From: Escherichia phage vB_EcoS-12210III
Sequence record: MK907227.1
Strand: one strand, 5' to 3'
Length of the DNA stretch: 44,219 bases
Shown here: in pieces, positions 297-43,992 of the stretch
Numbering within the stretch: the stretch's first letter is position 1
Layout: every line of letters starts with the position of its first letter
Made by a program: the position numbers and the translations under genes
Notes under the pieces: generated by a model
Database searches by the model: none
Told to the model about the DNA's origin: nothing
The model's input: only the letters and a program-made list of their open reading frames with translations

Positions 297-340
297 ATAG
301 CACGAATTCCTAAAACAGTATTGGGGTAATTTATTATAGT
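297..340 (+). promoter_or_regulatory. Conserved phage promoter unit: palindrome ATAGCACGAATTCCTAA (297-313), 22-nt spacer, -10-like TATAGT (335-340), leader CCGAAACGAG
   Basis: Member of a repeated motif family read directly from the sequence; lies upstream of the gene at 372. Confidence 0.5.
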
Positions 341-371
341 TACCCTACCGAAACGAGATGAGGTTACAATA

Positions 372-815
372 ATGACTAAGTTTATTTGCACAGGAAGTTA
401 CACTGATTCAGTTTCTATTGGTCAGGTAGTATATGGCCTCGCCTCTGAAGATGGGGAGTTTATTATAACCAAAGACACCAACGATTGCCCTTCTAATGAT
501 GGTGAGCCAAAGTTTAAGGTTGGAGAACGAGTTCCATTAAATGGTATACTTTGGCAATGGAAAGAGGTTAAAGAGATGGATAAAGATCCAACATTTGACA
601 TGATGATGAGTCAGTGCAAGGCGAGAGCTGAGTCACTTCGATTCTCCCAATCAGAGCCAAAGCTCCAGGCCAACCACTTTGACGGCTACGCAACATTCAT
701 CATTGCCCAGGCGTGCGGGATGCGCGAAGAGCCACAGGTTCACACCATTCACTTAACCGAAGAGCAGGCCAGAGAGCTAGCATACGAAATTCTTGAGCAA
801 TTGAATAAGATTTAA
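372..815 (+). CDS. Hypothetical early protein (147 aa)
   Basis: ORF with RBS-like GAGG upstream; preceded by a conserved promoter unit; no recognisable domain. Confidence 0.6.
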   Translation: MTKFICTGSYTDSVSIGQVVYGLASEDGEFIITKDTNDCPSNDGEPKFKVGERVPLNGILWQWKEVKEMDKDPTFDMMMSQCKARAESLRFSQSEPKLQANHFDGYATFIIAQACGMREEPQVHTIHLTEEQARELAYEILEQLNKI

Positions 816-866
816 CGCGCCTAAAACGCATTCTAACGAACGATAATTTAAGCAAGGTGATTCATC

Positions 867-992
867 ATGGAAGCACAAGAAAGCCCAGCAGAGTGGTGCA
901 AGCGAATGCAGGACGAAGCTAAAACTAGCGAAGAGGTGATGGCTTACTACGAGCTTGCGCAAATTTGGATGCAACGGGAGGAGAAACAATGA
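867..992 (+). CDS. Small hypothetical protein (41 aa)
   Basis: ATG 867 preceded by AAGGTGA; ends TGA 990-992 overlapping the next ATG (ATGA). Confidence 0.3.
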   Translation: MEAQESPAEWCKRMQDEAKTSEEVMAYYELAQIWMQREEKQ

Positions 993-1132
993 GCTTCACT
1001 GAATACGTAATCGCATGTGAAAGACTGGTCTTTGATATGAAAACATTCAACCGGTTCATCATTAAGGATTTAATTAAGCCTTACAAACAAGGTGTGACGC
1101 CAGAGGCTTTTGTTAAGTCATTCTATAAATAG
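989..1132 (+). CDS. Small hypothetical protein (47 aa)
   Basis: ATG 989 overlapping the previous stop; stop TAG 1130-1132. Confidence 0.3.
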   Translation: MSFTEYVIACERLVFDMKTFNRFIIKDLIKPYKQGVTPEAFVKSFYK

Positions 1133-1172
1133 CACGAATTGCTCAACGCAGTCGCCATGGATGGCATATAAT
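1129..1172 (+). promoter_or_regulatory. Conserved phage promoter unit: palindrome ATAGCACGAATTGCTCA (1129-1145), 22-nt spacer, TATAAT (1167-1172)
   Basis: Same architecture as the other copies; implies that the TTG-initiated extension of the track ORF (1110) is not coding. Confidence 0.5.
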
Positions 1173-1205
1173 CACCATATCAACACAACTAGAGAGATAG
1201 AGAAA

Positions 1206-1409
1206 ATGAACAACAAATCAAATGAAGTGACCAAAGTTAAATCACATATCGCAGAAAATAATTATGATGAGTCTTTGGGTTTAGGTTTAGGTTTGAATTC
1301 AAGAAAAGTAGTTGTTAACGGAATCACGGGTTTTCATTCTCGCTGCGTTATAGCTAAACCAGTTATTGGTTTTGAGTCTCGCTGCGTCTTTGTTGGTGGA
1401 GTCTTATAA
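1206..1409 (+). CDS. Hypothetical protein (67 aa); start trimmed to ATG 1206 downstream of the promoter
   Basis: In frame with track ORF 1110..1409, whose 5' part overlaps the promoter palindrome; AGAGAGATAGAG precedes ATG 1206. Confidence 0.4.
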   Translation: MNNKSNEVTKVKSHIAENNYDESLGLGLGLNSRKVVVNGITGFHSRCVIAKPVIGFESRCVFVGGVL

Positions 1410-1648
1410 TGTTCGGATTATCAGAAGCACACTTCAACGCAGTTAAACGTCAGGCCGCAAAGTTGAACGAAGAGTACAGCAAGCTATCGCCAAAGCAGCG
1501 TAAGGACGATAAGCATGTTGCGACGTTGATTTCTAAGATGTGGGAGCCAGTTTTTACAATCATTAGTCGAGATCGCTTTGTTTGGACTAGTGGATATCTT
1601 AAGGGTCGTGTGGGTCATGACGAGAATGGGAATAGTCTTTATGAGTGA
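1409..1648 (+). CDS. Hypothetical protein (79 aa)
   Basis: ORF; start overlaps upstream stop (TAATG). Confidence 0.5.
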   Translation: MFGLSEAHFNAVKRQAAKLNEEYSKLSPKQRKDDKHVATLISKMWEPVFTIISRDRFVWTSGYLKGRVGHDENGNSLYE

Positions 1649-1922
1649 ATTTACTATCTGGTTTATCGCGGGACTGATTGCTTGGGGTTGCTTTTTAATC
1701 GTTTAGATGGAGGTTGTAAAAAAGAGCTTGCATCACTGACCGGAATTATCTAACATTAACCACGTAGGCAATCGAGCCATCCAAGATGGAACGGCGCACG
1801 GAGCGCAGCTAATAAGTCCGTTGCTCATTAGGTAGCGTATACGGCATTAAGACCTAGCGCAAATAGGCAGATTAACCGGCTGTATCAGGCAGCCCCGGAG
1901 CCGTAACCGGGACTCATTCAAG

Positions 1923-1997
1923 GCTCTGCTAGCTCAATAGGATAGTAGCAACGACCTTCTAAGTCGTAGGTTACTGGTTCGAATCCAGTGCGGAGCG
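1923..1997 (+). tRNA. tRNA-Arg, anticodon UCU (reads AGA); CCA encoded at 1998-2000
   Basis: Manual fold: acceptor GCTCTGC/GCGGAGC (one G-U pair), U8, D-arm with GG, anticodon stem ACGAC/GTCGT, loop CTTCTAA (U33, anticodon TCT), 5-nt variable loop, T-arm ACTGG-TTCGAAT-CCAGT, discriminator G. Confidence 0.7.
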
Positions 1998-2015
1998 CCA
2001 ATAAAGGAGTTCATT

Positions 2016-2198: not shown

Positions 2199-2242
2199 AA
2201 AGTGTTATACCCTTGTAAAGTTTCGTTTCTCTCGTTGTTTTT

Positions 2243-11779: not shown

Positions 11780-11823
11780 ATGGCACTTTTTGCTAAAGAG
11801 TTAATCCAATCTTCCTGTATAGT
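11780..11823 (+). promoter_or_regulatory. Conserved phage promoter unit inside the tail module: palindrome variant ATGGCACTTTTTGCTAA (11780-11796), 22-nt spacer, TATAGT (11818-11823), leader CATCGAAACGA (11829-11839)
   Basis: Same geometry as the early-region copies. Confidence 0.5.
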
Positions 11824-11856
11824 TAACTCATCGAAACGAAATGAGAGATTAATTAA

Positions 11857-12813: not shown

Positions 12814-15789
12814 ATGGCAACAAATGAATTAGCCGGAATCACACTAGCCGTAGACGTATCGCAAGTAGACAGGGGTACGCAGTCCCTACAAAAGTTCAGG
12901 CAGGCAAACCAGCAGGCTGCTTCCGGTATTAGTGAGTTCGTCAACGCTGAGCAGGTTGCTAAAAACCAGGCTAGAGACACGGCTCGCGCACTTGCTGAAC
13001 AGCAAGCATCTTTGGCTAAATTGCAAACGGCTATTGACCCAACTGCGGCAAAGTTCCGTAAGCTGCAAGAGGCAGCGGTAGGTCTTGATAAGGCATTCGC
13101 GGCTGGCGTAGTTCCTGATGAGGAGTTTTTCCGCTTAGGTGAGGCGCTTGAAACGCAGAACGCAAAACTTGCTCGTTCACGTGCGGCACTAACTGAAGAG
13201 GGTAGAGCGGCAGCGCAAGCTGCAAAGGATAAGGCAAAGGCAAAGGCTGAAGCGGATAGATTCATTGCATCACTTGAGCGTCAGGCTCAAGCGGCAACAT
13301 TGACGCGTGAGGAGTACTTAAAATTACAGGCTGCTCAGCTTGGCGTAAGTTCTCAGGCAGCGCCTATTATTGACAGAATCGCCGATGCATCACAGAAGGC
13401 AAACACCCAGCTAATTGCTCAGAGCAAGGCCTTTCAACGCTCTGGCTTAAGCGCAGGCCAATACAAGGCTGCAATCTCTCAATTGCCAGCGCAGATTACA
13501 GATATTGGGACATCACTTGCTGGCGGCATTCCGATTTGGCTTATTGCAATTCAGCAAGGCGGACAAATTAAGGATGCATTTGGAGGTATTGGTAACACCT
13601 TTAGATTCGCGCTTGCAGCCTTAAATCCATTCAATGTTGCTGTTGGGGTTTTGGGTGGCGCGCTTGTTGCTCTAGGTATCGGTGCTGCCCAGGCAGAGAG
13701 TGAATTCAGAGCATTAAATTCTGCCATTGCGTTCTCAAACAACTCCACAATCGCATCAATCTCGCAGGTTAGAGAGTTGGTTAGCTCTGTTTCTGATGCT
13801 ACTGGTGCAACCAGAGGACTTGTGACTAGCATCGCAACAAGCCTTATTGAGCAAGGGAACCTTACGCTGACGCAGATTGACAAGATTACTAAATCTACCG
13901 CCAGATGGGCGCAGTTGACAGGTAAGGATGCAAAGGAAATTACTGGTTACTATAACCAGATTGCGAGCGACCCAATTCAAGGACTTGCTGATTTAGACAA
14001 GAGGTTTAACTTCCTTACTCAGGGGCAGTTAACAACAATTGAAAGATTGAGAGAGACTAGGGGTGAGGTTGAAGCCGTAACTGCTGCTATTGATATATTT
14101 AGCAAATCACAGGAAGCAAACCTTAACGATATTGCAGCCCAGCTTACTCCTCTTGAATTGGCCTGGAATGACTTCAGGAAGTACATATCTGATGTATGGG
14201 ATGCGATTAGTCGCAGAACGGTTGGGGCGCTAAACCTGTTTGTTGATGTAATAGCCGGGACAATTGAACAGATTAAGGTCTTCATTAACCAAGGTGACGC
14301 GCTGATTGGTGAGTTTGTAATTAGTGCAACTCAGGCATTGCAGAATATCCCAGGCCTTGATGGTGTCGGTGATGATGTAATCAAGAGTCAGCAGAAGATT
14401 ATCGATGCCGCCAAGAAGCAAAACCTTGAGCTAGAGAAGTCTATCAGGGAGAGAGATGCCAGAATCAGAGAGGGAGAACTTGGTTACGTTACACGCAGGG
14501 AAAATCAGAATTCCAATGAGCAATCAGGTACTGATGAGGAGTTTGCAAAAAGGAAGAAGGCGCTTCAGGATGAACTTGATGCGATCAAGAAGAGCAGGAA
14601 AGAAGAAAATGGTAGGGTTAAAGAGCAAAGAGACCTTACAATTGGTTACGAATCTGGCGTGTTGGCGCTCCAGGCTCAGCTCAAGGTTCTTCAGGAAAAC
14701 AGGGATATCGGCGCGGTAATAAGCAATGAGCGCAAGCAGTATCTTCAGGAGGTTGCCAAATTCCAGATTCTTGAGCAGAGGCAACTTGATGGCTCAATTA
14801 CCAAAGAGCAAGCAAGACTTCTCATTGAAAAGGATAAAGTTCTTGAGCTGGCAAGACAGAAGGCTGAGCTAGGTGATCAGATTGCTTTGCAGGAGCGAGC
14901 TAATAAGTTGGCTGAAGATAACCGCAAGAAGATTCTTCAGATTAACAATGAGGCAAGCAATATTAATTTGGGTACTGGACTATCATCTCGTGAACTGCAA
15001 AGAGCCAAAGAGATTCAGGCTCTTCAGTCCAATCAGGTCAATGCTGGTGGCTCTCTTGATGATGTTGATTTTCAGCAATTGCTGGAAGCAAGAAAGGAAT
15101 ACTACAAGCAAGAGGATAATCTTAGGTCAGACTGGCAATCCGGTGTAATATCCACTCTCGCTGACTTGACAGATAAGTACACTGACTACAACCAGATTGC
15201 TAAGGACTTAACCGTTGCGGCATTTGACGGGATAACAGAGCAAATTACAAACCTTGTAACCACTGGTGAGACCAATTTTAGGGAGTTCACAGCAAGCATC
15301 CTCAAAATGATTGCCAAGATTGCAACTCAGCTTCTTATTGTCAAGGCTATTGAGTCCAGTTTAAGTAGCTTCGGCGGTACTGGCGGCGCCTTTGGTTCAA
15401 TTGCTTCTGGCCTGGGTTTTGCTGGTGGCGGCTATACTGGCAATGGTGGTAAGTATCAGCCAGCAGGAACGGTGCACCGCGGTGAGTTTGTATTCACAAA
15501 AGAAGCGACTAGCAGAATTGGTGTTAAGAACCTTTACGCACTAATGAAGGGTTACGCAAATGGCGGTGTTGTTGGTGGCCCTTCTGGTTATGCAAATGGT
15601 GGTTTGGTTTCTGGTGGAGCAGATGTTAATGTTAGTGGTATCACTGTTAACGTAAACTCGGGTGTAGGTAGCGACCCAGAACAAGCTAAGGCACTGCAAA
15701 GCGGAGTCAAGGCTATCGTAGCCGAAGAGATTGCTCAGTCCTTCCAGCAGGGTGGTAGGGCGTATGCCTACCTTCGTGGATTCAACTAA
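12814..15789 (+). CDS. Tail tape measure protein
   Basis: 991 aa, long Ala/Gln/Glu-rich predicted helical region, C-terminal Gly-rich repeats (GYANGGVVGG / GYANGGLVSGG); follows the chaperone pair. Confidence 0.9.
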   Translation: MATNELAGITLAVDVSQVDRGTQSLQKFRQANQQAASGISEFVNAEQVAKNQARDTARALAEQQASLAKLQTAIDPTAAKFRKLQEAAVGLDKAFAAGVVPDEEFFRLGEALETQNAKLARSRAALTEEGRAAAQAAKDKAKAKAEADRFIASLERQAQAATLTREEYLKLQAAQLGVSSQAAPIIDRIADASQKANTQLIAQSKAFQRSGLSAGQYKAAISQLPAQITDIGTSLAGGIPIWLIAIQQGGQIKDAFGGIGNTFRFALAALNPFNVAVGVLGGALVALGIGAAQAESEFRALNSAIAFSNNSTIASISQVRELVSSVSDATGATRGLVTSIATSLIEQGNLTLTQIDKITKSTARWAQLTGKDAKEITGYYNQIASDPIQGLADLDKRFNFLTQGQLTTIERLRETRGEVEAVTAAIDIFSKSQEANLNDIAAQLTPLELAWNDFRKYISDVWDAISRRTVGALNLFVDVIAGTIEQIKVFINQGDALIGEFVISATQALQNIPGLDGVGDDVIKSQQKIIDAAKKQNLELEKSIRERDARIREGELGYVTRRENQNSNEQSGTDEEFAKRKKALQDELDAIKKSRKEENGRVKEQRDLTIGYESGVLALQAQLKVLQENRDIGAVISNERKQYLQEVAKFQILEQRQLDGSITKEQARLLIEKDKVLELARQKAELGDQIALQERANKLAEDNRKKILQINNEASNINLGTGLSSRELQRAKEIQALQSNQVNAGGSLDDVDFQQLLEARKEYYKQEDNLRSDWQSGVISTLADLTDKYTDYNQIAKDLTVAAFDGITEQITNLVTTGETNFREFTASILKMIAKIATQLLIVKAIESSLSSFGGTGGAFGSIASGLGFAGGGYTGNGGKYQPAGTVHRGEFVFTKEATSRIGVKNLYALMKGYANGGVVGGPSGYANGGLVSGGADVNVSGITVNVNSGVGSDPEQAKALQSGVKAIVAEEIAQSFQQGGRAYAYLRGFN

Positions 15790-18316: not shown

Positions 18317-18367
18317 ATTTAGTGTAGAATGGCACAAATGATCAAAACAAACATGAGGCTTTGTGAT

Positions 18368-21300
18368 ATGGCTGAAGATATTAAGATTTATGGTGCTAAA
18401 GGTGGTAGCCAGAAGCAGCATCAACCAGTTGAGCAGGAAGACAACCTTATTTCATTAAACAAGGTTAAGGTGTTGCTTGCGGTTGCTGACGGAGAGGTGG
18501 ATTCAAACTTCTCAATGAAGGATTTATACCTTGCTGACGTTCCGGTACAAAATCAGGATGGTAGTTACAACTATGAAGGTGTTCGCGCTGAGTTCCGTGC
18601 TGGCACGCAGTATCAGGACTATATCGCTGGCCTTGATGGTGCCAACTCAGAAATTCAGGTATCAAGGGAAATCAAAAACGATACCCCGCACATCATTGCG
18701 GTTAACAATAATCAGCTATCAGCGATTCGTGTAAAGCTATATTGGCCCAGACTGGTTAAGCAAGAGAGTAACGGTGACCTGAACGGGACAACCTGCGAGT
18801 ATGCAATTGACCTTTCTGTTAATGGTGGAGCTTACCAGGAATACACTCGAGGAGTTGCTAACGGGAAGACAACAACTGGTTACGACCGCAGCATTCGTGT
18901 AAATCTTCCTGCTGAATTTGATAGCGCATTGGTTCGCATCCGTAAGATCACACCAGACTCAACAAGTAGCACCCTGGTTAACGGAATGCAGATCACAACC
19001 TATCAGGAGGTAATCGACGCTAAATTCCGATATCCGCTTACGGCCCTGGTTTATGTTGAGTTCGGCTCTGACCTTTTCCCTAACGGGATTCCAACAATCT
19101 CAATCAAGAAGAGGTGGAAGCTGATTCAGGTCCCAACTAACTACGACCCTGAAACCAGAACTTACAGCGGGACATGGAACGGTTTGTTCAAGATGGCATG
19201 GTCAAATAACCCAGCGTGGGTTCTTTATGACTTGGTGACAAACCGCCGATATGGTCTTGACCAGCGAGAGCTAGGTGTAGAGATTGATAAATGGGGGCTG
19301 TACGAAGCCGCGCAATTCTGCGACCAGATGGTTCCTGATGGTAAGGGTGGTTTAGAGCCTCGTTATCTTTGCGATATGGTTGTCCAGAATAAAGCTGAGG
19401 CTTACACGCTAATTCGTGATATCTGTTCAATCTTCCGTGGCCTAACCTTCTATGACGGTGAAAAGATTGGCGTCGTGGTTGATAAGCCTCGTAATCCATC
19501 TTACATCTTCACGAATGATAACGTTGTTAATGGATTGTTCAGTCGCACATTTGCCAGCGATAAGAGCCTTTACACTACTGCTAACGTCCAGTTTGATGAT
19601 GTAGAGAACAACTATCAACAAGATGTAGAGCCGGTATTTGAATTAGAGGCAACTCGTCGTTTTGGATTTAACCCTGTAGATTTAACTGCGATTGGCTGTA
19701 CTCGCAGAAGTGAAGCAAACAGACGTGGTAGGTGGCTCCTTAAAACCAATCTGAGAAGCGAAACTATTAGCTTCACTACCGGGTTGGAAGGCATGATTCC
19801 GATGATTGGAGAGGTTATTGCGGTTAATGACGCAGCATGGTCGAGCAACTATCAGTTAAACCTTTCCGGTCGCATTGAGTCAGTTCAGGGATTGCAGGTT
19901 TTTACCCCGTTTAAAGTTGACGCAGCTCCAGGTGACAGAATTCTTCTGAACAAACCCGACGGAAGCCCGGAGGCAAGAACTATTGCAAGCGTATCTGAGG
20001 ATGGTATGACGATTAACCTGAACACGGCTTTCAGCTTTGTAGCTCAGCCTGACACTGTATTCGCAATCGATAAGGATAATCTGGCGCTTCAGCAGTATGT
20101 TGTGACCGGGATTCAAAAAGCGGATTCTGATGGTTCGGATTCATTCCAGTACACGATTACCGCAGTAGAGTATGACCCGAACAAGTATGACGAGATTGAC
20201 TACGGCGTTAACATCGTTGATCGTCCGACTTCAATCGTAGAGCCTGACAGATTGTCGCCGCCTGAGAATTTAACAGTGTCAAGCTACAGTAAGGTTGTTC
20301 AGGGCTTGTCAGTCGAGACGATGGTAATTGGCTGGGACAAGGCTCCATATGCTAAAACCTACAATGTTCAGTGGAGAAAAGAGAATGGCAACTGGATTAA
20401 CGTACCCAGAACAGCTAGCGCAGAGGTTGATATCGAAGGTATTTACGCAGGAATCTATGACGTTAGGGTTCGCAGCGTATCAGATACTGAAAACGTGTCT
20501 GCCTGGTCTGACATTGTAACTGTATCGCTAACTGGTAAGATTGGCCGCCCGTCTGCGCCTACAGTTATCACTGCATCAACTGATGAAGTATTTGGCATCC
20601 GTGTTAAATGGGGATTTCCTGAAGGATCTGGTGATACTGCTTACACTGAACTTCAGCAGGTTCCTGATAATGGTGACGGTACTTATAATCCTGATAACGC
20701 AAGTTTGCTGACTTTACTGCCTTATCCAGCCTATGAATACTGGCACACACCAATTCAGCCAGGAAAGGTTATCTGGTATCGCGCAAGATTGATTGACAGA
20801 ATCGGTAACACATCTGATTGGTCTAATTTCGCAAGAGGCATGAGTACTGACGACGCCAATATTATCAATGATTACATCAAGGTTGATATTGAGGGCTCGG
20901 AAGGATTCAAATACCTCGAGCAGAATGCGATTCAAAAGAATCAGGACATTCAGAACCAGGCAGAATCAATCCTTCAGAACGCATTGGCTAATGACACTGA
21001 TGTTCGTCGTATGACTAAGGAGAACGGCAAACGTAAGGCTGAATATGTTCAGGCTGTTAATCTCATAGCCGATGAAACTCAGGCGCGCGTAGAGGCTCTC
21101 ACACAGCTTAAGGCGCAGATAGATGATGAAGTTGTAGCGTCGATTACTGAAGTTCAGACTGCATTAGCCACAGAGACAGAAGCAAGGACTACAGCAGACA
21201 CGGCTCTATCAGCAAGGCTCGGTGAAAACGAGGCGGCTCTAAACCAGAAATTAGACGCATTCTCTAATGCCACATCAACTGGAGTGCAGTACGGAATTAG

Positions 21301-22933: not shown

Positions 22934-22968
22934 TTTGTATTCCTTGGTAATTTCGTTTCGATGGAGTA

Positions 22969-23012
22969 ATAGTATCGCATCCTTGCGATCAGTGTTTAGC
23001 AATTAGTGCTAT
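22969..23012 (-). promoter_or_regulatory. Conserved phage promoter unit (minus): palindrome at 22996-23012, 22-nt spacer, -10 TACTAT (22969-22974), leader CATCGAAACGA
   Basis: Reverse complement matches the family consensus; overlaps the 3' end of the Rha-like gene. Confidence 0.5.
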
Positions 23013-23656
23013 TTCTTTTCCAGCAGCAGCTTAATGTCAATTCCGAGATTATTCTCAATCAATCCAGTCAGCGCATCATTCTTTTCTTTAAGGGCGAAGC
23101 ATTGGGCTTCATACTTAAATCTTTCCTCCATCTCATCAGAACGACTAGCCCAACACTGGCGAGCCTCACAAGCCAGCATGTCTAGTTTTTCATCGGTACT
23201 CTTATCCATGAGTAAGATCTCATTTATTCTTTGCTCTGCAACAATGCGCTGGCTCAGGTGTGCATTCTGCGCATTAGCCACACCAAGCATCATTCGAACC
23301 TCTTTAAGTTCATTAATGCTTACCATCTGGCTGATTACTTCTGCTTGTTTTTTAACTAACGCCTCAAGCTCATGAAGTCGACGGATAACTCTGTGACGAA
23401 GAATGACGCTGTAGCCAGTTATTAGCGTTTCTGTAAGTTCCTTGTTAAGTAAAATCTCTGATGTATAGCCTAAATTATCTGTAAGTACTTGATAATCCTC
23501 ACTCCTTAAGTATGAGGAGTTGTTATAATGTATCAAATCATTGATCATTTCCTTGGCATCACGAATTACCTTATTATGTTCTTTACCAGTTAACCCCGCG
23601 ATCTCTTTGGTGCTCATCATGGCAACGTTGGTATCTTTAAATGGCTTGATATTCAT
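23009..23656 (-). CDS. Rha-family phage regulatory protein (putative)
   Basis: N-terminal motif STKEIAGLTGKEHNKVIRDAKEMI resembles the Rha signature (GK.H..V.RD); start taken at ATG 23656. Confidence 0.5.
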   Translation of the reverse strand: MNIKPFKDTNVAMMSTKEIAGLTGKEHNKVIRDAKEMINDLIHYNNSSYLRSEDYQVLTDNLGYTSEILLNKELTETLITGYSVILRHRVIRRLHELEALVKKQAEVISQMVSINELKEVRMMLGVANAQNAHLSQRIVAEQRINEILLMDKSTDEKLDMLACEARQCWASRSDEMEERFKYEAQCFALKEKNDALTGLIENNLGIDIKLLLEKK

Positions 23657-23657: not shown

Positions 23658-23987
23658 TTAACCGCCAAAAATTTTATTAATCAATTTATCAGCATCATCC
23701 TGAGACAGCTTCAATCTCTCTATTGGCTCTGGTTTTTTGCCTGTAACATTCCATCCTGTACATTTTCTTTTTATGTCAATACGCCTTGAGACTGAGTAGT
23801 AAGAGGCAACTTCAACCCTTTCAACAACCCCATAAGATTCAAGTTCAAGCAAGGTCCTCCTTGCGTTAGCCCTTTGGATTCCTGTCAATCTAGATACATC
23901 ATCCGCGGTAGGGCTGTACCTATCGCATCCTTCAGTGCAGTGTAGTATGCAATCAATTACCTTTTTTCTTGTGCTTGTCATTCTCAT
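23658..23987 (-). CDS. Winged-helix DNA-binding transcriptional regulator (putative)
   Basis: 109 aa; HTH-like segment (DVSRLTGIQRANARRTLLELESYGVVERVE); strong RBS GGGAGG; leader contains a palindromic half-site array. Confidence 0.5.
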   Translation of the reverse strand: MRMTSTRKKVIDCILHCTEGCDRYSPTADDVSRLTGIQRANARRTLLELESYGVVERVEVASYYSVSRRIDIKRKCTGWNVTGKKPEPIERLKLSQDDADKLINKIFGG

Positions 23988-24101: not shown

Positions 24102-24152
24102 CTTAAACAAAATTGCCATCCAAAAAGTAAAGTAAAAACCTCGCTCCCTGAG

Positions 24153-24196
24153 TTAATAAATGAAATTATCAGAATGTCTTTAGCAATTAGTGCTAT
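24153..24196 (-). promoter_or_regulatory. Conserved phage promoter unit (minus): palindrome 24180-24196, 22-nt spacer, -10 TATTAA (24153-24158)
   Basis: Reverse complement matches the family; drives the winged-helix regulator gene. Confidence 0.5.
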
Positions 24197-25081: not shown

Positions 25082-26043
25082 CTTTCAGAGTTTACACACG
25101 AGAGGAACTAAGCAATGAGTCTTACCACTCCGAGACTGAACACATCTCCGGTAGCTCACTTGTCGAGATTATCCAAGGATCACCAGCAAAGTGGAAATTC
25201 AAGCAGCGTAACAGCGATAGCAAGGCACTTAAATTCGGAACGCTTAGTCACACGTACATCCTGGAAGGTGACATGTTTGATAAAGAATACCTTCGAGCTA
25301 CAGACCTTGACGCGATTGAAGGCTTAATTACAAGCCAGGCAGGTTTAGCTTCAGCACTTAAAAAAGTTGGCGTGGCTGGCACTTCCGGGAAGGGTTATAG
25401 CGAGCTCGTAGAGATGATGTATCGATCTGGTGAGGACTGGCCCGTTAAATGGCTAATTGAGCAGCTGGAAAGCGCTCAGGCGCTCGTGGAGGGTAAGGAG
25501 CTGGTTAGCGCAGCAGACTACGACAAAGTGGTAGCGATGCGCGAGGTTCTTTGCAATATTCCAGCATATAATGCAATCGTGAACAGCGAAACGGCGCAGA
25601 AAGAGCTATCAATCTTTGGTGAGATTCTCGGTGTCGGAGTTAAGATTCGAATAGACCACGTTGATGTTGTTGATGGTGTAGTTCGGATCACAGATTATAA
25701 AACTACCGCAGACGCAAGCCCGGAAGGATTTGGTAAGTCGGCGTTTAATCACGGCTACCTTGCAAAAATGGCGCTTCAGAGAGATCTGTTTGTGAAGGCA
25801 TTTAACGAGAAGCGAAAGGTTGTTGTAGGGTTGTTGGCTCAGGAGAAGGTGGAGCCATACTTACCAATGCTGTACACCCTAACTGACGAGCAACTTCGAA
25901 TTGGTCGCCTTCAGTACCTTGAGGCGCTCGCCACTTACAAGAAGTGCAAGGAGCTGGATATCTGGCCTGGGTACTCTAATGGCATTACAGAGCAAGAGTT
26001 GATGATTCCTGACTGGGCAATTAAGCAGTATAAAGAAATTTAA
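25078..26043 (+). CDS. PD-(D/E)XK family exonuclease (putative recombination exonuclease)
   Basis: 321 aa; motifs consistent with the PD-(D/E)XK fold (..IDHVD.. and ..ITDYKT..); precedes the ERF-like and SSB genes. Confidence 0.6.
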   Translation: MTFRVYTREELSNESYHSETEHISGSSLVEIIQGSPAKWKFKQRNSDSKALKFGTLSHTYILEGDMFDKEYLRATDLDAIEGLITSQAGLASALKKVGVAGTSGKGYSELVEMMYRSGEDWPVKWLIEQLESAQALVEGKELVSAADYDKVVAMREVLCNIPAYNAIVNSETAQKELSIFGEILGVGVKIRIDHVDVVDGVVRITDYKTTADASPEGFGKSAFNHGYLAKMALQRDLFVKAFNEKRKVVVGLLAQEKVEPYLPMLYTLTDEQLRIGRLQYLEALATYKKCKELDIWPGYSNGITEQELMIPDWAIKQYKEI

Positions 26044-26087
26044 ATAGCACGAATTGCTAAATAAAAAATTAAAAGGTGGAGTATGAT
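26044..26087 (+). promoter_or_regulatory. Conserved phage promoter unit: palindrome ATAGCACGAATTGCTAA (26044-26060), 22-nt spacer, TATGAT (26082-26087)
   Basis: Family member; overlaps the GTG-initiated extension of the track ORF. Confidence 0.5.
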
Positions 26088-26117
26088 TACCCCCATCAAC
26101 TACGAACGAGGTTAAAT

Positions 26118-26768
26118 ATGCAAATTTCAGAATCATGCAAATCAATTTTAAACGCGCTACACACTGCCAAATCGCTATTTGCGAAGGCTGAAAAGTCTAA
26201 GCAGAACTCGCACTTAAAGAACAAGTACGCTACCTTAGAAGACGTTTTGGCGGCTGTTGAGCCTGGTTTAGATGAGTGTGGGCTTGTTATGTTCCAGAGT
26301 GTACTTGATGATGAACAAACCAATCGCATGAAGGTTGAGACAAAACTGTTTCATGCTGAATCTGGAGAGTGGGTTAGCTTCTTAATGATCGTCCCAATCA
26401 GTAAGAATGATGCACAGGGCTACGGCTCAGCATTAACATACGCTCGACGTTACGGAATCACAGCTGCATTAGGACTTAGTCAGGCAGATGATGATGGCAA
26501 TCTCGCAGCGAAAGGTGTTAAGGACTTTAAGCGAGAGCTAGAGAAATGCAATACTCTTGATGAGCTTCGCAATGTCTGGAAGGAGGCTAAGCAGTCACTT
26601 GATGCGGCAGGATGGAAGGTTTTCGAACCCCACATCATAGAGCGAAAGGCAGAGATTGAAGCAAATGCAGCAACTGGCTTCAACCCAGCAGCACCAAAGA
26701 AAGTTGCAGAAAAAAGTAGTCCTGAAGAAAAGATTAAAGTAGAATCAAAACAAATCGACACATTCTAA
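26118..26768 (+). CDS. ERF-family single-strand annealing protein (putative)
   Basis: Motifs KYATLEDVLAAVEP and GSALTYARRYGITAALGL resemble the ERF signature as I recall it from P22 Erf; start set to ATG 26118. Confidence 0.6.
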   Translation: MQISESCKSILNALHTAKSLFAKAEKSKQNSHLKNKYATLEDVLAAVEPGLDECGLVMFQSVLDDEQTNRMKVETKLFHAESGEWVSFLMIVPISKNDAQGYGSALTYARRYGITAALGLSQADDDGNLAAKGVKDFKRELEKCNTLDELRNVWKEAKQSLDAAGWKVFEPHIIERKAEIEANAATGFNPAAPKKVAEKSSPEEKIKVESKQIDTF

Positions 26769-29661: not shown

Positions 29662-29678
29662 ATAGCACTAATTGATAA
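29662..29678 (+). promoter_or_regulatory. Copy of the promoter palindrome (ATAGCACTAATTGATAA) with no matching -10 in either direction, between the primase terminator and the tailspike start
   Basis: Sequence identical to the palindrome of the primase promoter (30707-30723) but in plus orientation; 22 nt downstream is GGCATA. Confidence 0.4.
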
Positions 29679-29704
29679 GTTGGATTGTATCATCTTTCAG
29701 GCAT

Positions 29705-30658: not shown

Positions 30659-30678
30659 CCTCCATAAACAATAAAGGC

Positions 30679-30723
30679 ACTATACACAATGCATAGCGCC
30701 ACTGTTTATCAATTAGTGCTATT
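30679..30723 (-). promoter_or_regulatory. Conserved phage promoter unit (minus): palindrome 30707-30723, 22-nt spacer, -10 TATAGT (30679-30684)
   Basis: Family member upstream of the primase gene. Confidence 0.5.
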
Positions 30724-30727: not shown

Positions 30728-31201
30728 TTACTCTTTAGCTTTCCGTGCTGCTTCGTTAGCGGCCTTAATTTTGCGCCAGGACCGACACTCTGGCTTGGTG
30801 GCTAATTCAGCCTCGGTAACCACGCGAAGCATGTGGCGTTTTTTGCACCGAAGTGTCAGCGGCTTGCCGTTGCCGTCGAATTGCAAGTCTGGTCGGCAGA
30901 ATGTTGCGCGAAAACCTTCTCCATTTCGCTTATAGTAGTTGTGCGAAAGCTGAGCACCACGCGCCGACATCATGCCGCGCTTAAACCATTCTTCTACAGC
31001 CTGTGGTGTTACCTTTAATTGCTTTGCCATATTTGCCTTTGTGCCGAAGAAATCAAGAACAATTTCCAGCCGCGCACGTAAACCCGCTCTTACTTCATCT
31101 TTTAAAACGTAGTAACCTGAAGGTCGTTTTCGCTGCTTTTTATCTTCAGTGCGGATGGTTCCGTTATTGCCGTTAATGGTTCGCTTGTCTACTGCATTCA
31201 T
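30728..31201 (-). CDS. HTH DNA-binding protein (Cro/CI-like, putative regulator)
   Basis: 157 aa; HTH-like segment KANMAKQLKVTPQAVEEWFKRG; basic N-terminus; divergent from the helicase gene. Confidence 0.5.
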   Translation of the reverse strand: MNAVDKRTINGNNGTIRTEDKKQRKRPSGYYVLKDEVRAGLRARLEIVLDFFGTKANMAKQLKVTPQAVEEWFKRGMMSARGAQLSHNYYKRNGEGFRATFCRPDLQFDGNGKPLTLRCKKRHMLRVVTEAELATKPECRSWRKIKAANEAARKAKE

Positions 31202-31302
31202 TTCATTACCTCAATAGCATTTTTTGTTAAAAGTCATACTGATTTGATGGTATTATTGTACTCAATTAAACGCTACAAGACAATTTTTATAGGAATTTAG
31301 AT

Positions 31303-33297: not shown

Positions 33298-33713
33298 ACA
33301 TTACAGACAAATTTGATTACATTGAGTTTTACTCTGGACCGGTTAAGTCGTGTCCGAAAGAGGATGACGAACAAATCTTTTGCTCTGATTGGGTTAAGTA
33401 TAACTATCCAGAGATGGTATTTTTCCACTGCGTGAATGAGGGCAAAAAAACCATTGGTCAAGCAAGAAAGGACCAGGCTAAAGGGCTTCTCAAAGGCGTA
33501 TCAGACTGTATGTTTCTTATTCCCGAATCTATCAGAGGAAAGTACCCTTTCGGAGCCATAGAGCTAAAGAGGGCAGGAAAAACCCAGGCTAGTCCAGTCA
33601 GTAACGAGCAGAAGTCCTTCCTTAAAAGCGTAAGAGAGTCAGGCGGCTTCGCTGCCGTGGCGTACGGTCGCGAGGGTTTTCTTGCTGCATTTAGAGAAAT
33701 GATTTCAAAATAG
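33294..33713 (+). CDS. VRR-NUC-like nuclease (putative)
   Basis: 139 aa; C-terminal region with D...ELK-type motif (GAIELKRAG) and overall VRR-NUC-like pattern; ATGA overlap with the helicase gene. Confidence 0.45.
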   Translation: MNITDKFDYIEFYSGPVKSCPKEDDEQIFCSDWVKYNYPEMVFFHCVNEGKKTIGQARKDQAKGLLKGVSDCMFLIPESIRGKYPFGAIELKRAGKTQASPVSNEQKSFLKSVRESGGFAAVAYGREGFLAAFREMISK

Positions 33714-33753
33714 CACTAATTGCTAAAGATGAATCGGTGGGGTGGTGTATTAT
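33710..33753 (+). promoter_or_regulatory. Conserved phage promoter unit: palindrome ATAGCACTAATTGCTAA (33710-33726), 22-nt spacer, TATTAT (33748-33753), leader CATCGAAACGA
   Basis: Family member. Confidence 0.5.
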
Positions 33754-33789
33754 CACCTCATCGAAACGAAACGAAGAGAGAGAAACAAA

Positions 33790-34911: not shown

Positions 34912-36042
34912 ATGGCAACTGCAAAAATTACCAACGAAGAACTGCGCGAAGAGCTGGCTAATGGCATGACAAACAAGGCAATCGCAGAGAAGTACGGAAT
35001 GAACATTCGCAACGTTGAATTGCGTCGTAGTAAATTAGCTAAGCAAGGTGAGGGGCATGGCCGTGATGTTAGCAACCTAATTCCTCAAGGTTACGCTGTC
35101 AAAGGTGTGTCTAGCTTAATTGGTGCCGACGGTGAGATTAAGCAACAGTGGGTTAAATCTGACATCGACAAAGAGAAGCAAGAAGAAATGATGCTTCAGG
35201 CAATTCAGGCCCTAACTGATGAGTTGCCACGCGAGAAACCAAAGCCGCTCAGTAAGTCATCATTTGAGGATACCTTAAGCCTGTACCCCGTATTCGACTT
35301 ACACATTGGCGCAATGGCTCACCATGCCGAGTGTGGTGAGAACTACAGCACTGAAATTGCAGAGCGCATTCTTAATAGCTACTTTGATTACGCGGTTGCA
35401 AAGGCTCCTAACTCAAAGAAGGCTGTATTGCTGATTGGTGGTGACTTCCTTCACTCTGACGGAATGGAAGCGGTAACTCCAACGAGTCGTCATATTCTTG
35501 ACCAAGATAGCCGTTATCACAAATTGGTTTACGTAGCAGTACGAGCAACCCGCAGAGCAATTAGCCGGATGCTTGATAAGCACGCTGAGATTGAGGTTCA
35601 GATTATCCCTGGAAACCACGACCTCTCAGGTATGATTTGGCTTCGTGCTGCAATGGCGGCGTTCTATATGGATGAGCCTCGAGTTAATGTTGACGCATCT
35701 CCTGCAGCGCTTCACGTAACGCAGTTTGGAAAGACGCTGCTTGGTTACTGTCATGGACATGAACTCAAAAAGCCTGATACCAGACTATCAACACTGGCTC
35801 GTGACCATCGTAAGGCTTTTGGTGAGTCTGAGTATGTTTACACTCATAGTGGCCATTACCACCATCAAACGATTACAGAGGGTAACTTAGGTATCGATGA
35901 GTCTCATGGTCAGCTTGGTTGCAAGGATGCGTACAGTGCCAACGGTGGTTATCGCTCTTATCGCCAGGCGTCGGTAATCATCTACAGCCCTAAATTCGGA
36001 GAGATTGGTCGATTCACTTGCCGTCCCGAAATGTTTAGTTAA
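34912..36042 (+). CDS. Metallophosphoesterase (calcineurin-like) with N-terminal HTH-like segment
   Basis: Motifs DLH, GGDFLH, GNHD, GH, GHYHH in the canonical order; N-terminal TNKAIAEKYGMNIRNVELRR is HTH-like. Confidence 0.6.
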   Translation: MATAKITNEELREELANGMTNKAIAEKYGMNIRNVELRRSKLAKQGEGHGRDVSNLIPQGYAVKGVSSLIGADGEIKQQWVKSDIDKEKQEEMMLQAIQALTDELPREKPKPLSKSSFEDTLSLYPVFDLHIGAMAHHAECGENYSTEIAERILNSYFDYAVAKAPNSKKAVLLIGGDFLHSDGMEAVTPTSRHILDQDSRYHKLVYVAVRATRRAISRMLDKHAEIEVQIIPGNHDLSGMIWLRAAMAAFYMDEPRVNVDASPAALHVTQFGKTLLGYCHGHELKKPDTRLSTLARDHRKAFGESEYVYTHSGHYHHQTITEGNLGIDESHGQLGCKDAYSANGGYRSYRQASVIIYSPKFGEIGRFTCRPEMFS

Positions 36043-36085
36043 TAGCACTTTTTGCCTAAGTAATGCCGTAGAAATGCGGCATAAT
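36042..36085 (+). promoter_or_regulatory. Conserved phage promoter unit: palindrome ATAGCACTTTTTGCCTA (36042-36058), 22-nt spacer, CATAAT (36080-36085), leader CATCGAAACGA
   Basis: Family member. Confidence 0.5.
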
Positions 36086-36126
36086 CACCACATCGAAACG
36101 AGATGAGCTAAACAAGGAAGCACAAA

Positions 36127-36303: not shown

Positions 36304-36330
36304 CGCAGAAAAAACATAGCTTTACAAGCG

Positions 36331-36354
36331 GGGGGCCTTTGGCTCCCTTTTTTT
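36331..36354 (+). terminator. Terminator (GGGGGCC-TTT-GGCTCCC with one G-U pair, T7)
   Basis: Read from sequence. Confidence 0.5.
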
Positions 36355-37607: not shown

Positions 37608-37637
37608 TTTAAAATCCTCTTTGTTTTCTATGAAGTA

Positions 37638-37681
37638 ACTATGCTCTTTTTGTTTTTCTTTTATTTAGCAATTTGTGCTAT
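37638..37681 (-). promoter_or_regulatory. Conserved phage promoter unit (minus): palindrome 37665-37681, 22-nt spacer, -10 CATAGT (37638-37643)
   Basis: Family member. Confidence 0.45.
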
Positions 37682-37758
37682 CAGTACACGCCAAGATAAA
37701 TAGCTACGTTATCCATGATTGCAACAGCAGTCAGCATACCAGCGAAGAACTTAACCAT
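37681..37758 (-). CDS. Small hydrophobic peptide (25 aa; MVKFFAGMLTAVAIMDNVAIYLGVY)
   Basis: ATG downstream of a promoter unit and CATCGAAACGA leader; coding status uncertain. Confidence 0.2.
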   Translation of the reverse strand: MVKFFAGMLTAVAIMDNVAIYLGVY

Positions 37759-37795
37759 TTTGTTTTCCTTTCCTGTCTATCGTTTCGATGAATTA

Positions 37796-37839
37796 ATAAT
37801 AACAAAAGCCCACAAGGGGCTTTTAACAAAAAGTGCTAT
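37796..37839 (-). promoter_or_regulatory. Conserved phage promoter unit (minus): palindrome variant 37823-37839, 22-nt spacer, -10 TATTAT (37796-37801), leader CATCGAAACGA; overlaps a terminator hairpin (37805-37822)
   Basis: Family member with the first half-site degenerated (TTAACAA). Confidence 0.4.
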
Positions 37840-39762: not shown

Positions 39763-39792
39763 TACTTGTCTCCGTATTGTTTCTGAGCGGCC

Positions 39793-39836
39793 ATTATATC
39801 AACGACCGCTTATAATTCATTGTCAATTTGTGCTTA
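39793..39836 (-). promoter_or_regulatory. Conserved phage promoter unit (minus): palindrome variant 39820-39836 (hexamer TTGACA), 22-nt spacer, -10 TATAAT (39793-39798)
   Basis: Family member upstream of the NTPase gene. Confidence 0.5.
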
Positions 39837-40351: not shown

Positions 40352-40377
40352 TTCTTATCTCCCGTTTCGATGTAAAG

Positions 40378-40421
40378 ATAATACCGCATCCTTGCGATTT
40401 CGTTTTAGCAATTCGTGCTAT
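40378..40421 (-). promoter_or_regulatory. Conserved phage promoter unit (minus): palindrome 40405-40421, 22-nt spacer, -10 TATTAT (40378-40383), leader CATCGAAACGG
   Basis: Family member. Confidence 0.5.
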
Positions 40422-40995: not shown

Positions 40996-41022
40996 TTCTA
41001 TCTCCTCGTTTTTGATGAGCTA

Positions 41023-41067
41023 ACTATAGCCTCGCTAACTCATAATGTCTTTAGCAAAAAGCGCTAT
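41023..41067 (-). promoter_or_regulatory. Conserved phage promoter unit (minus): palindrome variant 41051-41067, 23-nt spacer, -10 TATAGT (41023-41028)
   Basis: Family member. Confidence 0.45.
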
Positions 41068-42670: not shown

Positions 42671-42777
42671 GAGCATCCTAGTAGACTACCATACCACTTC
42701 CGGTACAGTGATGAGGAGGTGAAGGCGGGGATTGAGTTCTACTGGAAAGCGAAAGCTCTCCTGAACGGTGAATATTA

Positions 42778-42993
42778 ATGCTTATAAAATGTGTGTATGT
42801 AAGGCAAGCCAATCACCACAACCTTTCAGTTGTAAATGGCGGGATATACGTGGCTAAGCCGATACCTTGTTTTAATGGCTCATACTACATCAAGGTTGAT
42901 GGTAATGGGTACATAGTTAAGACGATAGGTGAATCCCTTATGATAAAAAGCCTTGGCGTCATAATGGCTAAGTTCGAAATAGTTCGCAAATAG
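42778..42993 (+). CDS. Hypothetical protein (71 aa)
   Basis: ORF from the track. Confidence 0.4.
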   Translation: MLIKCVYVRQANHHNLSVVNGGIYVAKPIPCFNGSYYIKVDGNGYIVKTIGESLMIKSLGVIMAKFEIVRK

Positions 42994-43033
42994 CACGAAT
43001 TGCTAAACAATGGATCGGGTAGTCAGCTATGAT
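42990..43033 (+). promoter_or_regulatory. Conserved phage promoter unit: palindrome ATAGCACGAATTGCTAA (42990-43006), 22-nt spacer, TATGAT (43028-43033), leader CATCGAAAACAAAGAGG
   Basis: Family member. Confidence 0.5.
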
Positions 43034-43063
43034 TACCCCATCGAAAACAAAGAGGAAATGAAT

Positions 43064-43267
43064 ATGGAAGCTGTTCGAGTAGAAGATCAGTGCTTTGATC
43101 AGGCCGAGGTAAGTATAGGTAGCGGCGCTCAAGGAACGTTTGTGTATCTGGATTTCGATCCTGACGACAATGGAGACAGCCAGGCGATTATGCGATACAG
43201 CTCTGATCAAGCCCGCAAACTGGCGGCGGCATTAATCCTGGCAGCAGACGAGGCGGAGAGGCAATGA
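43064..43267 (+). CDS. Hypothetical acidic protein (67 aa)
   Basis: Start set to ATG 43064 (RBS AGAGGA); the track start at 43010 lies inside the promoter. Confidence 0.4.
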   Translation: MEAVRVEDQCFDQAEVSIGSGAQGTFVYLDFDPDDNGDSQAIMRYSSDQARKLAAALILAADEAERQ

Positions 43268-43280
43268 AGGAGAAATTATA

Positions 43281-43499
43281 ATGCAGGTATATACGAATAG
43301 TAATGGTGTCGAGTTTTGTGTGGTTTCCGGAGTGGTTCTTCGCACTGTTGGCGGTCTCGGGATCATCAACATTTCAGGGATCAAGCCTGAATCGCTGGTT
43401 AAGGGTGTCCAGGCCGGAATCTTCACCTTTCACTCAACGCTGACGGCTAAGCAGTATGTTACCCTCGCCAACGCGGTTAAGTACGGGGTTATCAGATAG
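43281..43499 (+). CDS. Hypothetical protein (72 aa)
   Basis: ORF from the track; RBS-like AAGGAGA upstream. Confidence 0.45.
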   Translation: MQVYTNSNGVEFCVVSGVVLRTVGGLGIINISGIKPESLVKGVQAGIFTFHSTLTAKQYVTLANAVKYGVIR

Positions 43500-43539
43500 C
43501 ACTTTTTGCTAAAATGGGATTCATCCTGACTGGTATAAT
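43496..43539 (+). promoter_or_regulatory. Conserved phage promoter unit: palindrome ATAGCACTTTTTGCTAA (43496-43512), 22-nt spacer, TATAAT (43534-43539)
   Basis: Family member. Confidence 0.5.
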
Positions 43540-43611
43540 CCCCACACCAACCACGCGAGTGTAAGTTAAGTGACGATATACGAACATAAATTCAGCAGCA
43601 GGGGTATTGAT

Positions 43612-43695
43612 ATGCTCCTGCACTATGTAGACGAAAAGTACGCAAAGCTCATGCTTAAGACGCATGGCGGCACAATAACGAGGATTGATATATGA
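43612..43695 (+). CDS. Small hypothetical peptide (27 aa)
   Basis: ATG with RBS-like AGGGG; ATGA overlap with the next gene; coding status uncertain. Confidence 0.25.
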   Translation: MLLHYVDEKYAKLMLKTHGGTITRIDI

Positions 43696-43952
43696 GTAAG
43701 TACAATCGTGAAATTATTGGCATTGATGGCACGGTAACAACAGTGGATGTTTATCGCGTTCTTGATGCGTTTGGTGTATCTGACCCAGCAACGCAGCATG
43801 CAATAAAGAAGATGCTTTGCACTGGTCTGCGTGGTCACAAAGATTACCTTACTGATCTTAATGACTCGATTGATTCATTGCGGAGGGCTAAAGAGCTTTA
43901 CGGGCAGAAGATGATTCATGAATCGTCTAAATCAATTCAGGTTGGTAAATAG
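43692..43952 (+). CDS. Hypothetical protein (86 aa)
   Basis: ORF from the track. Confidence 0.45.
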   Translation: MSKYNREIIGIDGTVTTVDVYRVLDAFGVSDPATQHAIKKMLCTGLRGHKDYLTDLNDSIDSLRRAKELYGQKMIHESSKSIQVGK

Positions 43953-43992
43953 CACTTTTTGCCTAACCAGCTACGGCGGGTTTTGTTATAGT
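43949..43992 (+). promoter_or_regulatory. Conserved phage promoter unit: palindrome ATAGCACTTTTTGCCTA (43949-43965), 22-nt spacer, TATAGT (43987-43992)
   Basis: Family member upstream of the gene that wraps across the window ends. Confidence 0.5.

Follow-up and report, generated by a model that had tools for sequence, protein, structure and literature searches.

Candidate marbox-type promoters for host stress-response activators in the T1-like Escherichia phage vB_EcoS-12210III

The 44,219-bp sequence of Escherichia phage vB_EcoS-12210III (MK907227.1, analysed at its full length and hereafter called the window) carries 19 copies of an asymmetric 20-bp element, 18 of which point towards a -10 hexamer and a co-oriented gene. 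We propose, with a probability of about 0.68, that these elements belong to class II marbox promoters, at which Rob, MarA or SoxS from the host acts with sigma70 RNA polymerase. The phage would then probably use the antibiotic- and stress-response activators of its host to turn on most of its non-structural genes.

The window is a circularly permuted version of vB_EcoS-2004V and of its near-identical siblings, among them the RefSeq phage vB_EcoS-12210I, and the gene coordinates given below are those of the RefSeq gene list of a near-identical phage transferred onto window positions. The phage is a virulent T1-like siphovirus of E. coli (Drexlerviridae, Braunvirinae, Veterinaerplatzvirus). T1-like phages have neither an RNA polymerase nor a sigma factor of their own and almost no canonical sigma70 promoters, and their transcription has been a puzzle; the marbox reading offers a concrete hypothesis for it. 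Between 22000 and 41999 of the window, matches to canonical sigma70 promoters were not enriched (45 vs 42.1 +/- 6.5 expected).

Results

A repeat family shared by T1-like phages

An earlier, sequence-only reading of the window had listed 18 copies of the quasi-palindrome ATAGCAC-N3-TTGCTAA. All 18 were present, the copy placed at 30707 lying one position off, at 30706-30722. Scanning this genome with a position weight matrix (PWM) recovered all of them together with a weaker 19th copy, found by a leave-in matrix, at 31214 (+; ATAGCATTTTTTGTTAAAA) upstream of the helicase gene. Copies are named here by their listed positions. The family consensus was the conserved asymmetric 20-mer ATAGCACnnWTTGYTAAAn, and the full alignment read aAATAGCAC-nnW-TTGCTAAA, 18 nt, TATaAT, tACCcCAtcGAAAcga, a ribosome-binding site and a start codon.

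The density of the motif far exceeded that of shuffled sequence. Allowing two mismatches, TAGCA-N5-TGCTA matched 45 times (24.9 +/- 5.1 expected), and the published marbox consensus with at most one mismatch matched 14 times, four of them perfectly (0.91 +/- 0.95 expected), a count reached in 0/100 shuffles. At the same threshold, phage T1 had 21 matches (0.96 expected from shuffles) and the Klebsiella phage vB_KpnS_Call (Webervirus) had 17 (0.94 expected), whilst lambda had none. Multi-copy occurrence of the strict motif in IMG/VR was confined to T1-like contigs of 42-52 kb.

The motif had been thought specific to this phage. However, the same repeat was already described in phage TLS, with mention of its presence in T1, Rtp and Rogue1 (PMC11447400), so the repeat itself is not new. 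The 2024 re-annotation of TLS described a 21-nt direct repeat, aaATAGCACnnnTTGnTAAAA, at 21 places, oriented along transcription and ~76 nt before start codons, with subtypes that differ in a central AAA, TTT or GAA (PMC11447400). Its authors found only three sigma70-like promoters and suggested that the repeat is a stoperator, an enhancer-binding site or an UP element (PMC11447400). A marbox assignment was not found in the searchable literature on marboxes in phages or on Rob, MarA or SoxS in Drexlerviridae and T1-like phages.

The near-restriction of the family to non-structural regions held, with only the 11780 copy inside the structural module and the 1129 copy upstream of it. The stop codon of the upstream gene often lay inside the box or its A-rich flank, either as the TAG of ATAGCAC or as a TAA just before it (294-299, 1130-1132, 26041-26043, 33711-33713, 43497-43499, 43950-43952 and 23009-23011), and each such promoter thus begins at the very end of the preceding gene.

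The boxes fit the marbox consensus

The sequence-only reading had not recognised the motif as a known operator, but it fits the E. coli marbox/soxbox/robbox consensus, published as the 20-bp AYNGCACNNWNNRYYAAAYN (PMC2064960) and in the short form GCAHWWWWTGYYAAA (PMC6900184). The phage consensus, ATAGCAC-nnW-TTGYTAAA, agreed with AYNGCACNNWNNRYYAAAYN at all specified positions and also with the short form, and the 15-mer form was matched perfectly at 9/19 sites. MarA, SoxS and Rob are AraC-family activators of the enterobacterial host, each with two helix-turn-helix motifs. MarA, SoxS, Rob and RamA bind the marbox as monomers and form complexes of defined orientation (PMC6900184).

Known host sites resembled the phage sites in turn. 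When 600 bp around E. coli micF was scanned with the PWM of the phage sites, the top match was the known micF box, ACAGCACTGAATGTCAAAAC, followed after exactly 18 bp by the -10 hexamer TAGAAT. The box of the mar promoter, read on the reverse strand (ATGCCACGTTTTGCTAAATC), had 16/19 positions in common with the T-type box of the phage.

Spacing and class II geometry

A -10-like hexamer followed 17/18 of the listed copies, as first described, and 18/19 once 31214 was added; the copy without one was 29662. The hexamers were TATAAT, TATAGT, TATTAT, TATGAT, CATAAT, TACTAT and TATTAA, which match the consensus at four to six of six positions. The spacer, given earlier as a constant 22 nt, was indeed constant, although the figure depends on where it is counted from, being 22 nt from TTGCTA and 21 nt from the end of the 17-mer. 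Measured from the end of the 20-bp box, the distance to the -10 was 18 bp at 16 sites, 19 bp at one (41051) and 17 bp at one (31214). Related phages kept this layout: in 186 of 268 unique copies taken from T1-like contigs the best -10 stood 18 bp away, with a further 20 at 19 bp and eight at 17 bp, and two directly read copies from the Klebsiella phage had an identical layout.

At the position 17 bp from the -10, matches to TTGACA ranged from 0 to 4 of six positions (mean ~1.2), leaving no usable -35. The view of these sites as a promoter family is therefore upheld, with an upstream element at a fixed distance from the -10, co-oriented with the downstream gene and lacking a usable -35. The class II geometry proposed earlier also stands, the box centre falling near -41 if transcription starts 7 nt after the -10. 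In class II marbox promoters, a forward box centred near -41 overlaps the -35, a recognisable -35 is missing, the -10 is canonical, and the activator moves sigma70 region 4 off the -35 and touches both region 4 and the alpha C-terminal domain (PMC12052159, PMC10268841, PMC8811837, PMC9178005). The -35/-10 pattern of the phage promoters was comparable to that of the Salmonella class II set. At most sites the start codon came 20-40 nt downstream of the predicted +1; it was further off at 24180, 43496, 37823 and 42990.

That the family defines an early transcription programme, as had been supposed, is not established. The promoter at 36042 lies upstream of the lysis genes, with a terminator-like hairpin before the holin, and marboxes adjoin late genes both here and in T1.

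The element is asymmetric

The motif had been described as a palindrome recognised in the manner of CRP or FNR. A partial dyad does exist, with positions +/-3 to +/-7 around the centre complementary, but the flanking conserved positions are not symmetric: the equally conserved +/-2 (C/T) and +/-8 and +/-9 (A/A) were complementary in at most 1/19 copies. A1, C7 and A17-18 are likewise conserved yet not symmetric. Position 14 was C or T (24 C, 9 T) whilst its dyad partner G4 was invariant, and in T1 and the Klebsiella relative the right arm was often TGTTA with the left arm invariant. In a leave-one-out PWM, sites scored 26.5 on average in the forward direction and -2.1 as the reverse complement, and the forward direction was far better at 19/19 sites. 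Because the right arm drifts while the left arm is fixed, and scores are high in the forward direction only, the element is directional. The variation tracks the marbox and not the dyad, and a palindrome bound by a CRP/FNR-type dimer no longer describes an element whose conservation is asymmetric and strictly directional.

A model of host-driven activation

Protein binding, activator dependence and start sites are what we infer from these features. At about 18 promoters, a forward box at about -50 to -31 would take the place of the -35, ending 18 bp before the -10. As described for micF, the activator would bind the GCAC and TAAA elements of the box, shift sigma70 region 4 from the -35 and recruit the host sigma70 RNA polymerase through contacts with region 4 and the alpha C-terminal domain. 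The polymerase would then read the -10 and initiate at the conserved A of CATCGAAACGA, giving a transcript with a short leader (20-35 nt) before the ribosome-binding site. Rob is the likeliest activator in unstressed cells, and MarA or SoxS may substitute for it or boost activation under stress.

Since the phage appears to encode no AraC-family protein, the activator would have to be derived from the host, and Rob, being constitutive and abundant, is the natural candidate when infection begins. A phmmer search of all six-frame open reading frames (ORFs) with MarA and SoxS probes found no MarA-like protein (best E-value 0.25); the two probes matched each other at E ~1e-28 and thus behaved as real homologues. 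Nor was an AraC-family Pfam domain found in 30 non-structural proteins. The phage regulators put forward earlier as candidates have other affinities: gp34 has a weak Cro-like helix-turn-helix (HTH), the 23658-23987 product a weak winged-HTH, and the 23009-23656 product is Rha-like, none of them belonging to the AraC family.

A reversed box over the tail-fibre promoter

The copy at 29662 had been singled out as the exception, and none of the -10 hexamers of the family stands at its spacing. The box (29662-29681) reads on the plus strand and is reversed relative to the leftward tail-fibre gene. In minus-strand order, the region (29662-29692, -) follows the primase stop codon and a terminator and comprises an extended -10, TGaTACAAT (29692-29684), 5 nt and the reversed box (29681-29662), after which come a GGAG ribosome-binding site and the tail-fibre ATG at 29638. 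The box thereby covers about -4 to +16 of the extended -10 promoter of the tail-fibre gene. T1 keeps this order: terminator, TGaTAAAAT, 4 nt, reversed box, AAGGAG and ATG. Marboxes that overlap core promoters, for example at pbpG, have been treated as repressive (PMC12052159). Both the shared layout in T1 and the repression ascribed to marboxes in this zone point to the 29662 box as a probable occlusion site for the tail-fibre promoter, perhaps bound by the same activator. We speculate that this occlusion is relieved by titration as phage DNA replicates.

A marbox-like 20-mer of uncertain status, ATGGCACAAATGATCAAAAC, was also present at 18329-18348 (+). It has no -10 at 18 bp, follows a terminator, overlaps TAGAAT and stands 20 nt before a large tail gene (18368), whose T1 homologue likewise has a marbox immediately before it. 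T1 carries marboxes right beside the start codons of its small terminase and large tail genes (8362, 25021), with no room for a -10. In its late region it also has reversed boxes between genes (15068-15086, -; 18832-18850, -), each with a -10-like hexamer 18 bp away in the antisense direction.

Hairpins and a conserved start region

The 18-nt spacer forms an inverted repeat in most copies, and two kinds could be told apart. In the first, the stem lies within the spacer and the T/A-rich -10 follows as a tail; in the second, the spacer pairs with the discriminator and the -10 hexamer stands in the loop. Stem sequences vary by site, both in the window (GGGGTAA/TTACCC, GAGTTAA/TTAACTC, AGCGGTC/GGCCGCT) and in T1 (AAGGCC/GGCCTT, ATGAGGTG/CACCTCAT). 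Examples of covarying inverted repeats lie at 314-345, 33727-33758 and 39788-39819 (-), and others were seen in T1 and IMG/VR loci. The inverted repeats at the window sites had a mean z-score of -2.25. Across 198 related copies the mean folding energy was -9.7 vs -4.3 for shuffles, with 87% of copies more stable than their own shuffles (p = 5e-30), and the 20-nt stretch just upstream of the box in these copies had no excess structure.

Several such hairpins are labelled as terminators in the T1 GenBank record. Two promoters without a co-oriented upstream gene were also without a hairpin, 41051 has one, and most hairpins lack a U-tract; a role simply as terminators of the upstream genes fits only partly. 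The hairpins may be nested terminators or 3' stabilisers of the upstream mRNA, or may have a DNA-level role at the -10. Between 22000 and 41999 of the window, terminator-like hairpins were about twice as frequent as in shuffles (32 vs 16.5).

A conserved start region, tACCcCATCGAAACGA, lay downstream of each -10, at ~6 to 20 nt (e.g. 11829-11840, 33759-33770 and 36091-36102). Its discriminator is rich in C and its leader, of 20-35 nt, is rich in A and C, and the region is common to T1 and the Klebsiella relatives. Possible functions include promoter escape, mRNA stability or a translation signal.

Individual promoters and gene annotation

The first three promoters all read rightwards. The box ATAGCACGAATTCCTAAAAC (297-316; promoter 297-347, +) precedes the -10 TATAGT and a predicted +1 at ~347, with the hairpin GGGGTAA/TTACCC around the -10, and serves gp61 (start 372). 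ATAGCACGAATTGCTCAACG (1129-1179, +), in which TAG is the stop codon of gp63, is followed by TATAAT and gp64 (start 1206). The sole promoter within the structural module, ATGGCACTTTTTGCTAAAGA with TATAGT (11780-11830, +), lies after the terminator of the major tail gene and before the gene at 11857. A tRNA-Arg(TCT) is annotated at 1923-2000 (+), upstream of the terminase genes, in the RefSeq record of the identical phage.

Further along, ATAGCACTAATTGCTAAACA (22962-23012, -), a perfect consensus match with the -10 TACTAT, precedes a lipoprotein gene (start codon 22933). The winged-HTH gene (start 23987) and the Rha-like gene share the promoter at 24146-24196 (-), where the -10 (TATTAA) is weak and the leader long. 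Another perfect match, ATAGCACGAATTGCTAAATA with TATGAT (26044-26094, +), serves the ERF recombinase gene. This ORF (26118-26768, +; 216 aa) fills a gap in the RefSeq annotation and has a strong match to the ERF superfamily (E = 7.7e-28).

ATAGCACTAATTGATAAACA (30672-30722, -), with its -10 TATAGT within a long hairpin, precedes the primase gene (start 30652), and the 19th member, ATAGCATTTTTTGTTAAAAG (31214-31263, +), with TATTAT after 17 bp, precedes the helicase gene (31303). Divergent promoters overlap at 31202-31302. On the minus strand, gp34 has a canonical-type promoter, TTGTCT-17-TACAAT (31283-31255), whose -10 overlaps that of the helicase marbox promoter and whose transcript would cross the 31214 box; this overlap could act as a switch. 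ATAGCACTAATTGCTAAAGA with TATTAT (33710-33760, +) leads to gp37 (start 33790), and ATAGCACTTTTTGCCTAAGT with CATAAT (36042-36092, +) to gp43 (36127), the lysis genes lying beyond a terminator-like hairpin at 36330-36348.

Five leftward promoters follow. These are ATAGCACAAATTGCTAAATA (37631-37681, -), a perfect match with CATAGT before gp47 (start 37607); ATAGCACTTTTTGTTAAAAG (37789-37839, -), with a terminator-type hairpin in its spacer and the -10 TATTAT, before a small unannotated ORF; TAAGCACAAATTGACAATGA (39786-39836, -), the most degenerate member, with TATAAT in a hairpin loop, before the DNA helicase gene gp49 (start 39762); ATAGCACGAATTGCTAAAAC (40371-40421, -), with TATTAT before gp51 (start 40351); and ATAGCGCTTTTTGCTAAAGA (41016-41067, -), with TATAGT after 19 bp, before gp53 (start 40995). 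The right end holds three rightward promoters: the perfect match ATAGCACGAATTGCTAAACA with TATGAT (42990-43040, +) for gp56, ATAGCACTTTTTGCTAAAAT (43496-43546, +) with a TATAAT preceded by TG for gp58 (start 43692), and ATAGCACTTTTTGCCTAACC with TATAGT (43949-43999, +) for a gene starting at ~44004.

The annotation is probably incomplete or wrong at 37823 and 42990, where the start codon is unusually distant from the +1. Downstream of the 37823 promoter (37680-37790, -) stand a ribosome-binding site and the ATG of a small ORF (MVKFFAGMLTAVAIM...) that is absent from the RefSeq annotation. The annotated start of gp56 (43010-43267, +) falls at 43010, inside its own promoter between box and -10. 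An in-frame ATG at 43064, after AGAGGA, fits the promoter model better and is probably the true start. The promoter model thus allows gene starts to be corrected and genes missed by annotation to be found.

Discussion

Weighing the marbox reading

Several points weigh against class II marbox promoters driven by Rob, MarA or SoxS. All support for them comes from sequence, and the marbox match was found post hoc, by way of host factor motifs. Unstressed cells contain little MarA or SoxS, and both proteins turn over quickly. Rob is reported to be mostly sequestered and unable to reach DNA without inducers (PMC2787020). Sequestration of the one and scarcity of the others put in doubt the supply of activator for ~19 promoters as infection begins. 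Selections for T1 resistance classically give tonA/fhuA and tonB mutants and are not known to give rob mutants, so any dependence on Rob alone is not absolute and must be redundant or partial. The phage sites are also more uniform and hold more information than chromosomal marboxes, and their conserved A3, T11 and T12, which are free in the consensus, may mean that another protein binds instead of, or alongside, the host activators. A Cro-like HTH regulator (gp34; ST23 in T1), kept in all Drexlerviridae examined, could bind the dyad TAGCA-N5-TGCTA, perhaps as a competitor.

A phage regulator may even be the activator itself. In that case a dimer of gp34 (30728-31201, -) or of the winged-HTH protein (23658-23987, -) would bind TAGCA-N5-TGCTA and activate the promoters, or later shut them off, from the class II position. 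The 5+5 dyad occurs in 14-18/19 copies, homologues of gp34 occupy the same position in T1 and Klebsiella phage Call, and gp34 combines weak Cro/HTH matches with its own canonical-type promoter, independent of any box; the greater uniformity of the phage boxes over host marboxes also speaks for such a protein. Yet dyad symmetry never extends to A1, C7 and AAA17-19, every site scores in the forward direction only, and the right arm drifts to TGTTA in about one third to one half of the T1 and Klebsiella copies while the left arm is fixed. The match to a host consensus over 19 positions, the orientation and the exact micF spacing would all be coincidence, and a phage-made activator could not start a programme in which nearly all promoters need it. 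We therefore regard this explanation as unlikely. Boxes with a mainly negative or titrating function, whether they resemble stoperators or act as decoys that draw off Rob, MarA and SoxS and so dampen the stress response of the host, seem quite unlikely. A fixed 18-bp distance to the -10 in ~70% of the 268 copies would be purposeless for a pure decoy or roadblock, and neither a phage repressor nor an integrase appears in the annotated record. This is despite the stoperator analogy drawn for TLS (PMC11447400), the lack of a -10 at an activating distance at 29662, 18329 and the T1 copies adjacent to start codons, and an asymmetry and co-orientation with transcription like those of mycobacteriophage stoperators. 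Phage DNA replication would, in addition, multiply some 20 sites of predicted high affinity.

Direct reading of the element by host RNA polymerase without an activator, as an UP-element-like or displaced -35-like enhancer, is very unlikely. TTGCTA equals TTGACA at 4/6 positions, the -10 hexamers are good, and UP or enhancer elements were proposed by the TLS authors (PMC11447400), but TTGCTA lies 22 bp from the -10, beyond the reach of sigma70 region 4. The invariant core GCAC...TTGC is not A/T-rich as in an UP element, and the invariant ATAGCAC half would be left unexplained. Least credible is another host protein with a similar consensus, such as Lrp or sigma54. For Lrp (consensus YAGHAWATTWTDCTR), the TAGCA and TGCTA arms fit the outer parts, but the asymmetric conserved positions (invariant C7, A1 and the AAA tail) are unexplained and strict directionality would be unexpected. 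TAGCAC...TTGC resembles a sigma54 (-24/-12) promoter (TGGCAC-N5-TTGC), and the 11780 copy has TGGCAC; however, with N3 in place of N5 the elements are 2 bp too close, GG is found in only 1/19 copies (AG in the other 18), and a fixed downstream -10 would be pointless. Other candidates were set aside. The conserved CCCCAT after the -10 resembles the -10 of sigma32, but inspection of the alignment found no conserved -35 13-15 bp upstream. OxyR has the wrong spacing, the T4 MotA box the wrong position, and AraC requires two direct half-sites.

Significance

Should the marbox reading be correct, a virulent phage would depend on a stress regulon of its host for the majority of its promoters, which is unusual. 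Infection would be linked to the mar/sox/rob system that underlies intrinsic and clinical multidrug resistance, with a bearing on phage-antibiotic combinations and on which hosts suit these phages. The receptor of TLS is TolC, itself regulated by MarA, SoxS and Rob. A bolder version, which we consider doubtful, is that Drexlerviridae have handed nearly all their promoters to the host antibiotic- and oxidative-stress activators. In that case salicylate, redox drugs, bile and mar/sox-constitutive mutations for multidrug resistance would tune phage development. Timing could be set by replicating phage DNA, which would titrate the activator and in the end free promoters under reversed or overlapping marboxes, such as that of the tail-fibre gene at 29662, and the -10-loop hairpin could be a new family-specific element or nested terminator.

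Comparison with known systems

The TLS repeat is the same element as the phage boxes, with the same co-orientation, start-codon distance and subtypes; the TLS paper, however, is without the marbox match, the fixed -10 distance and the hairpins described here. CRP/FNR class II sites are alike in being centred near -41.5 and overlapping the -35, but they are symmetric and bound by dimers, whereas the phage element is asymmetric and directional. In T4 middle promoters (MotA box and AsiA), too, an upstream box stands in for the -35 and sigma70 region 4 is redirected, with normal reading of the -10, and the MotA box TGCTTtA is superficially like TTGCTAA. The MotA box, however, is centred at -30 and served by the phage-encoded MotA and AsiA, whereas the boxes described here are centred near -41 and resemble a host-type site, with no phage activator found. 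For marbox repression of the pbpG type (PMC12052159), the parallel is the 29662 box, which lies in the same zone, with a predicted repressive effect and a layout kept in T1.

The closest likeness is to class II promoters of the micF type, activated by MarA, SoxS or Rob (RamA). Both have a 20-bp asymmetric forward marbox with GCAC and YAAA elements, which replaces the -35, is centred near -41 and stands 18 bp from a canonical -10, with no -35 match. Binding of the host protein is a prediction for the phage sites, which differ from chromosomal marboxes in number and quality: there are ~19 per 44 kb on a virulent genome, near-uniform and near-consensus, whereas chromosomal marboxes are degenerate. 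To the micF-type arrangement the phage adds the conserved start region tACCcCATCGAAACGA and covarying hairpins of the -10 and spacer.

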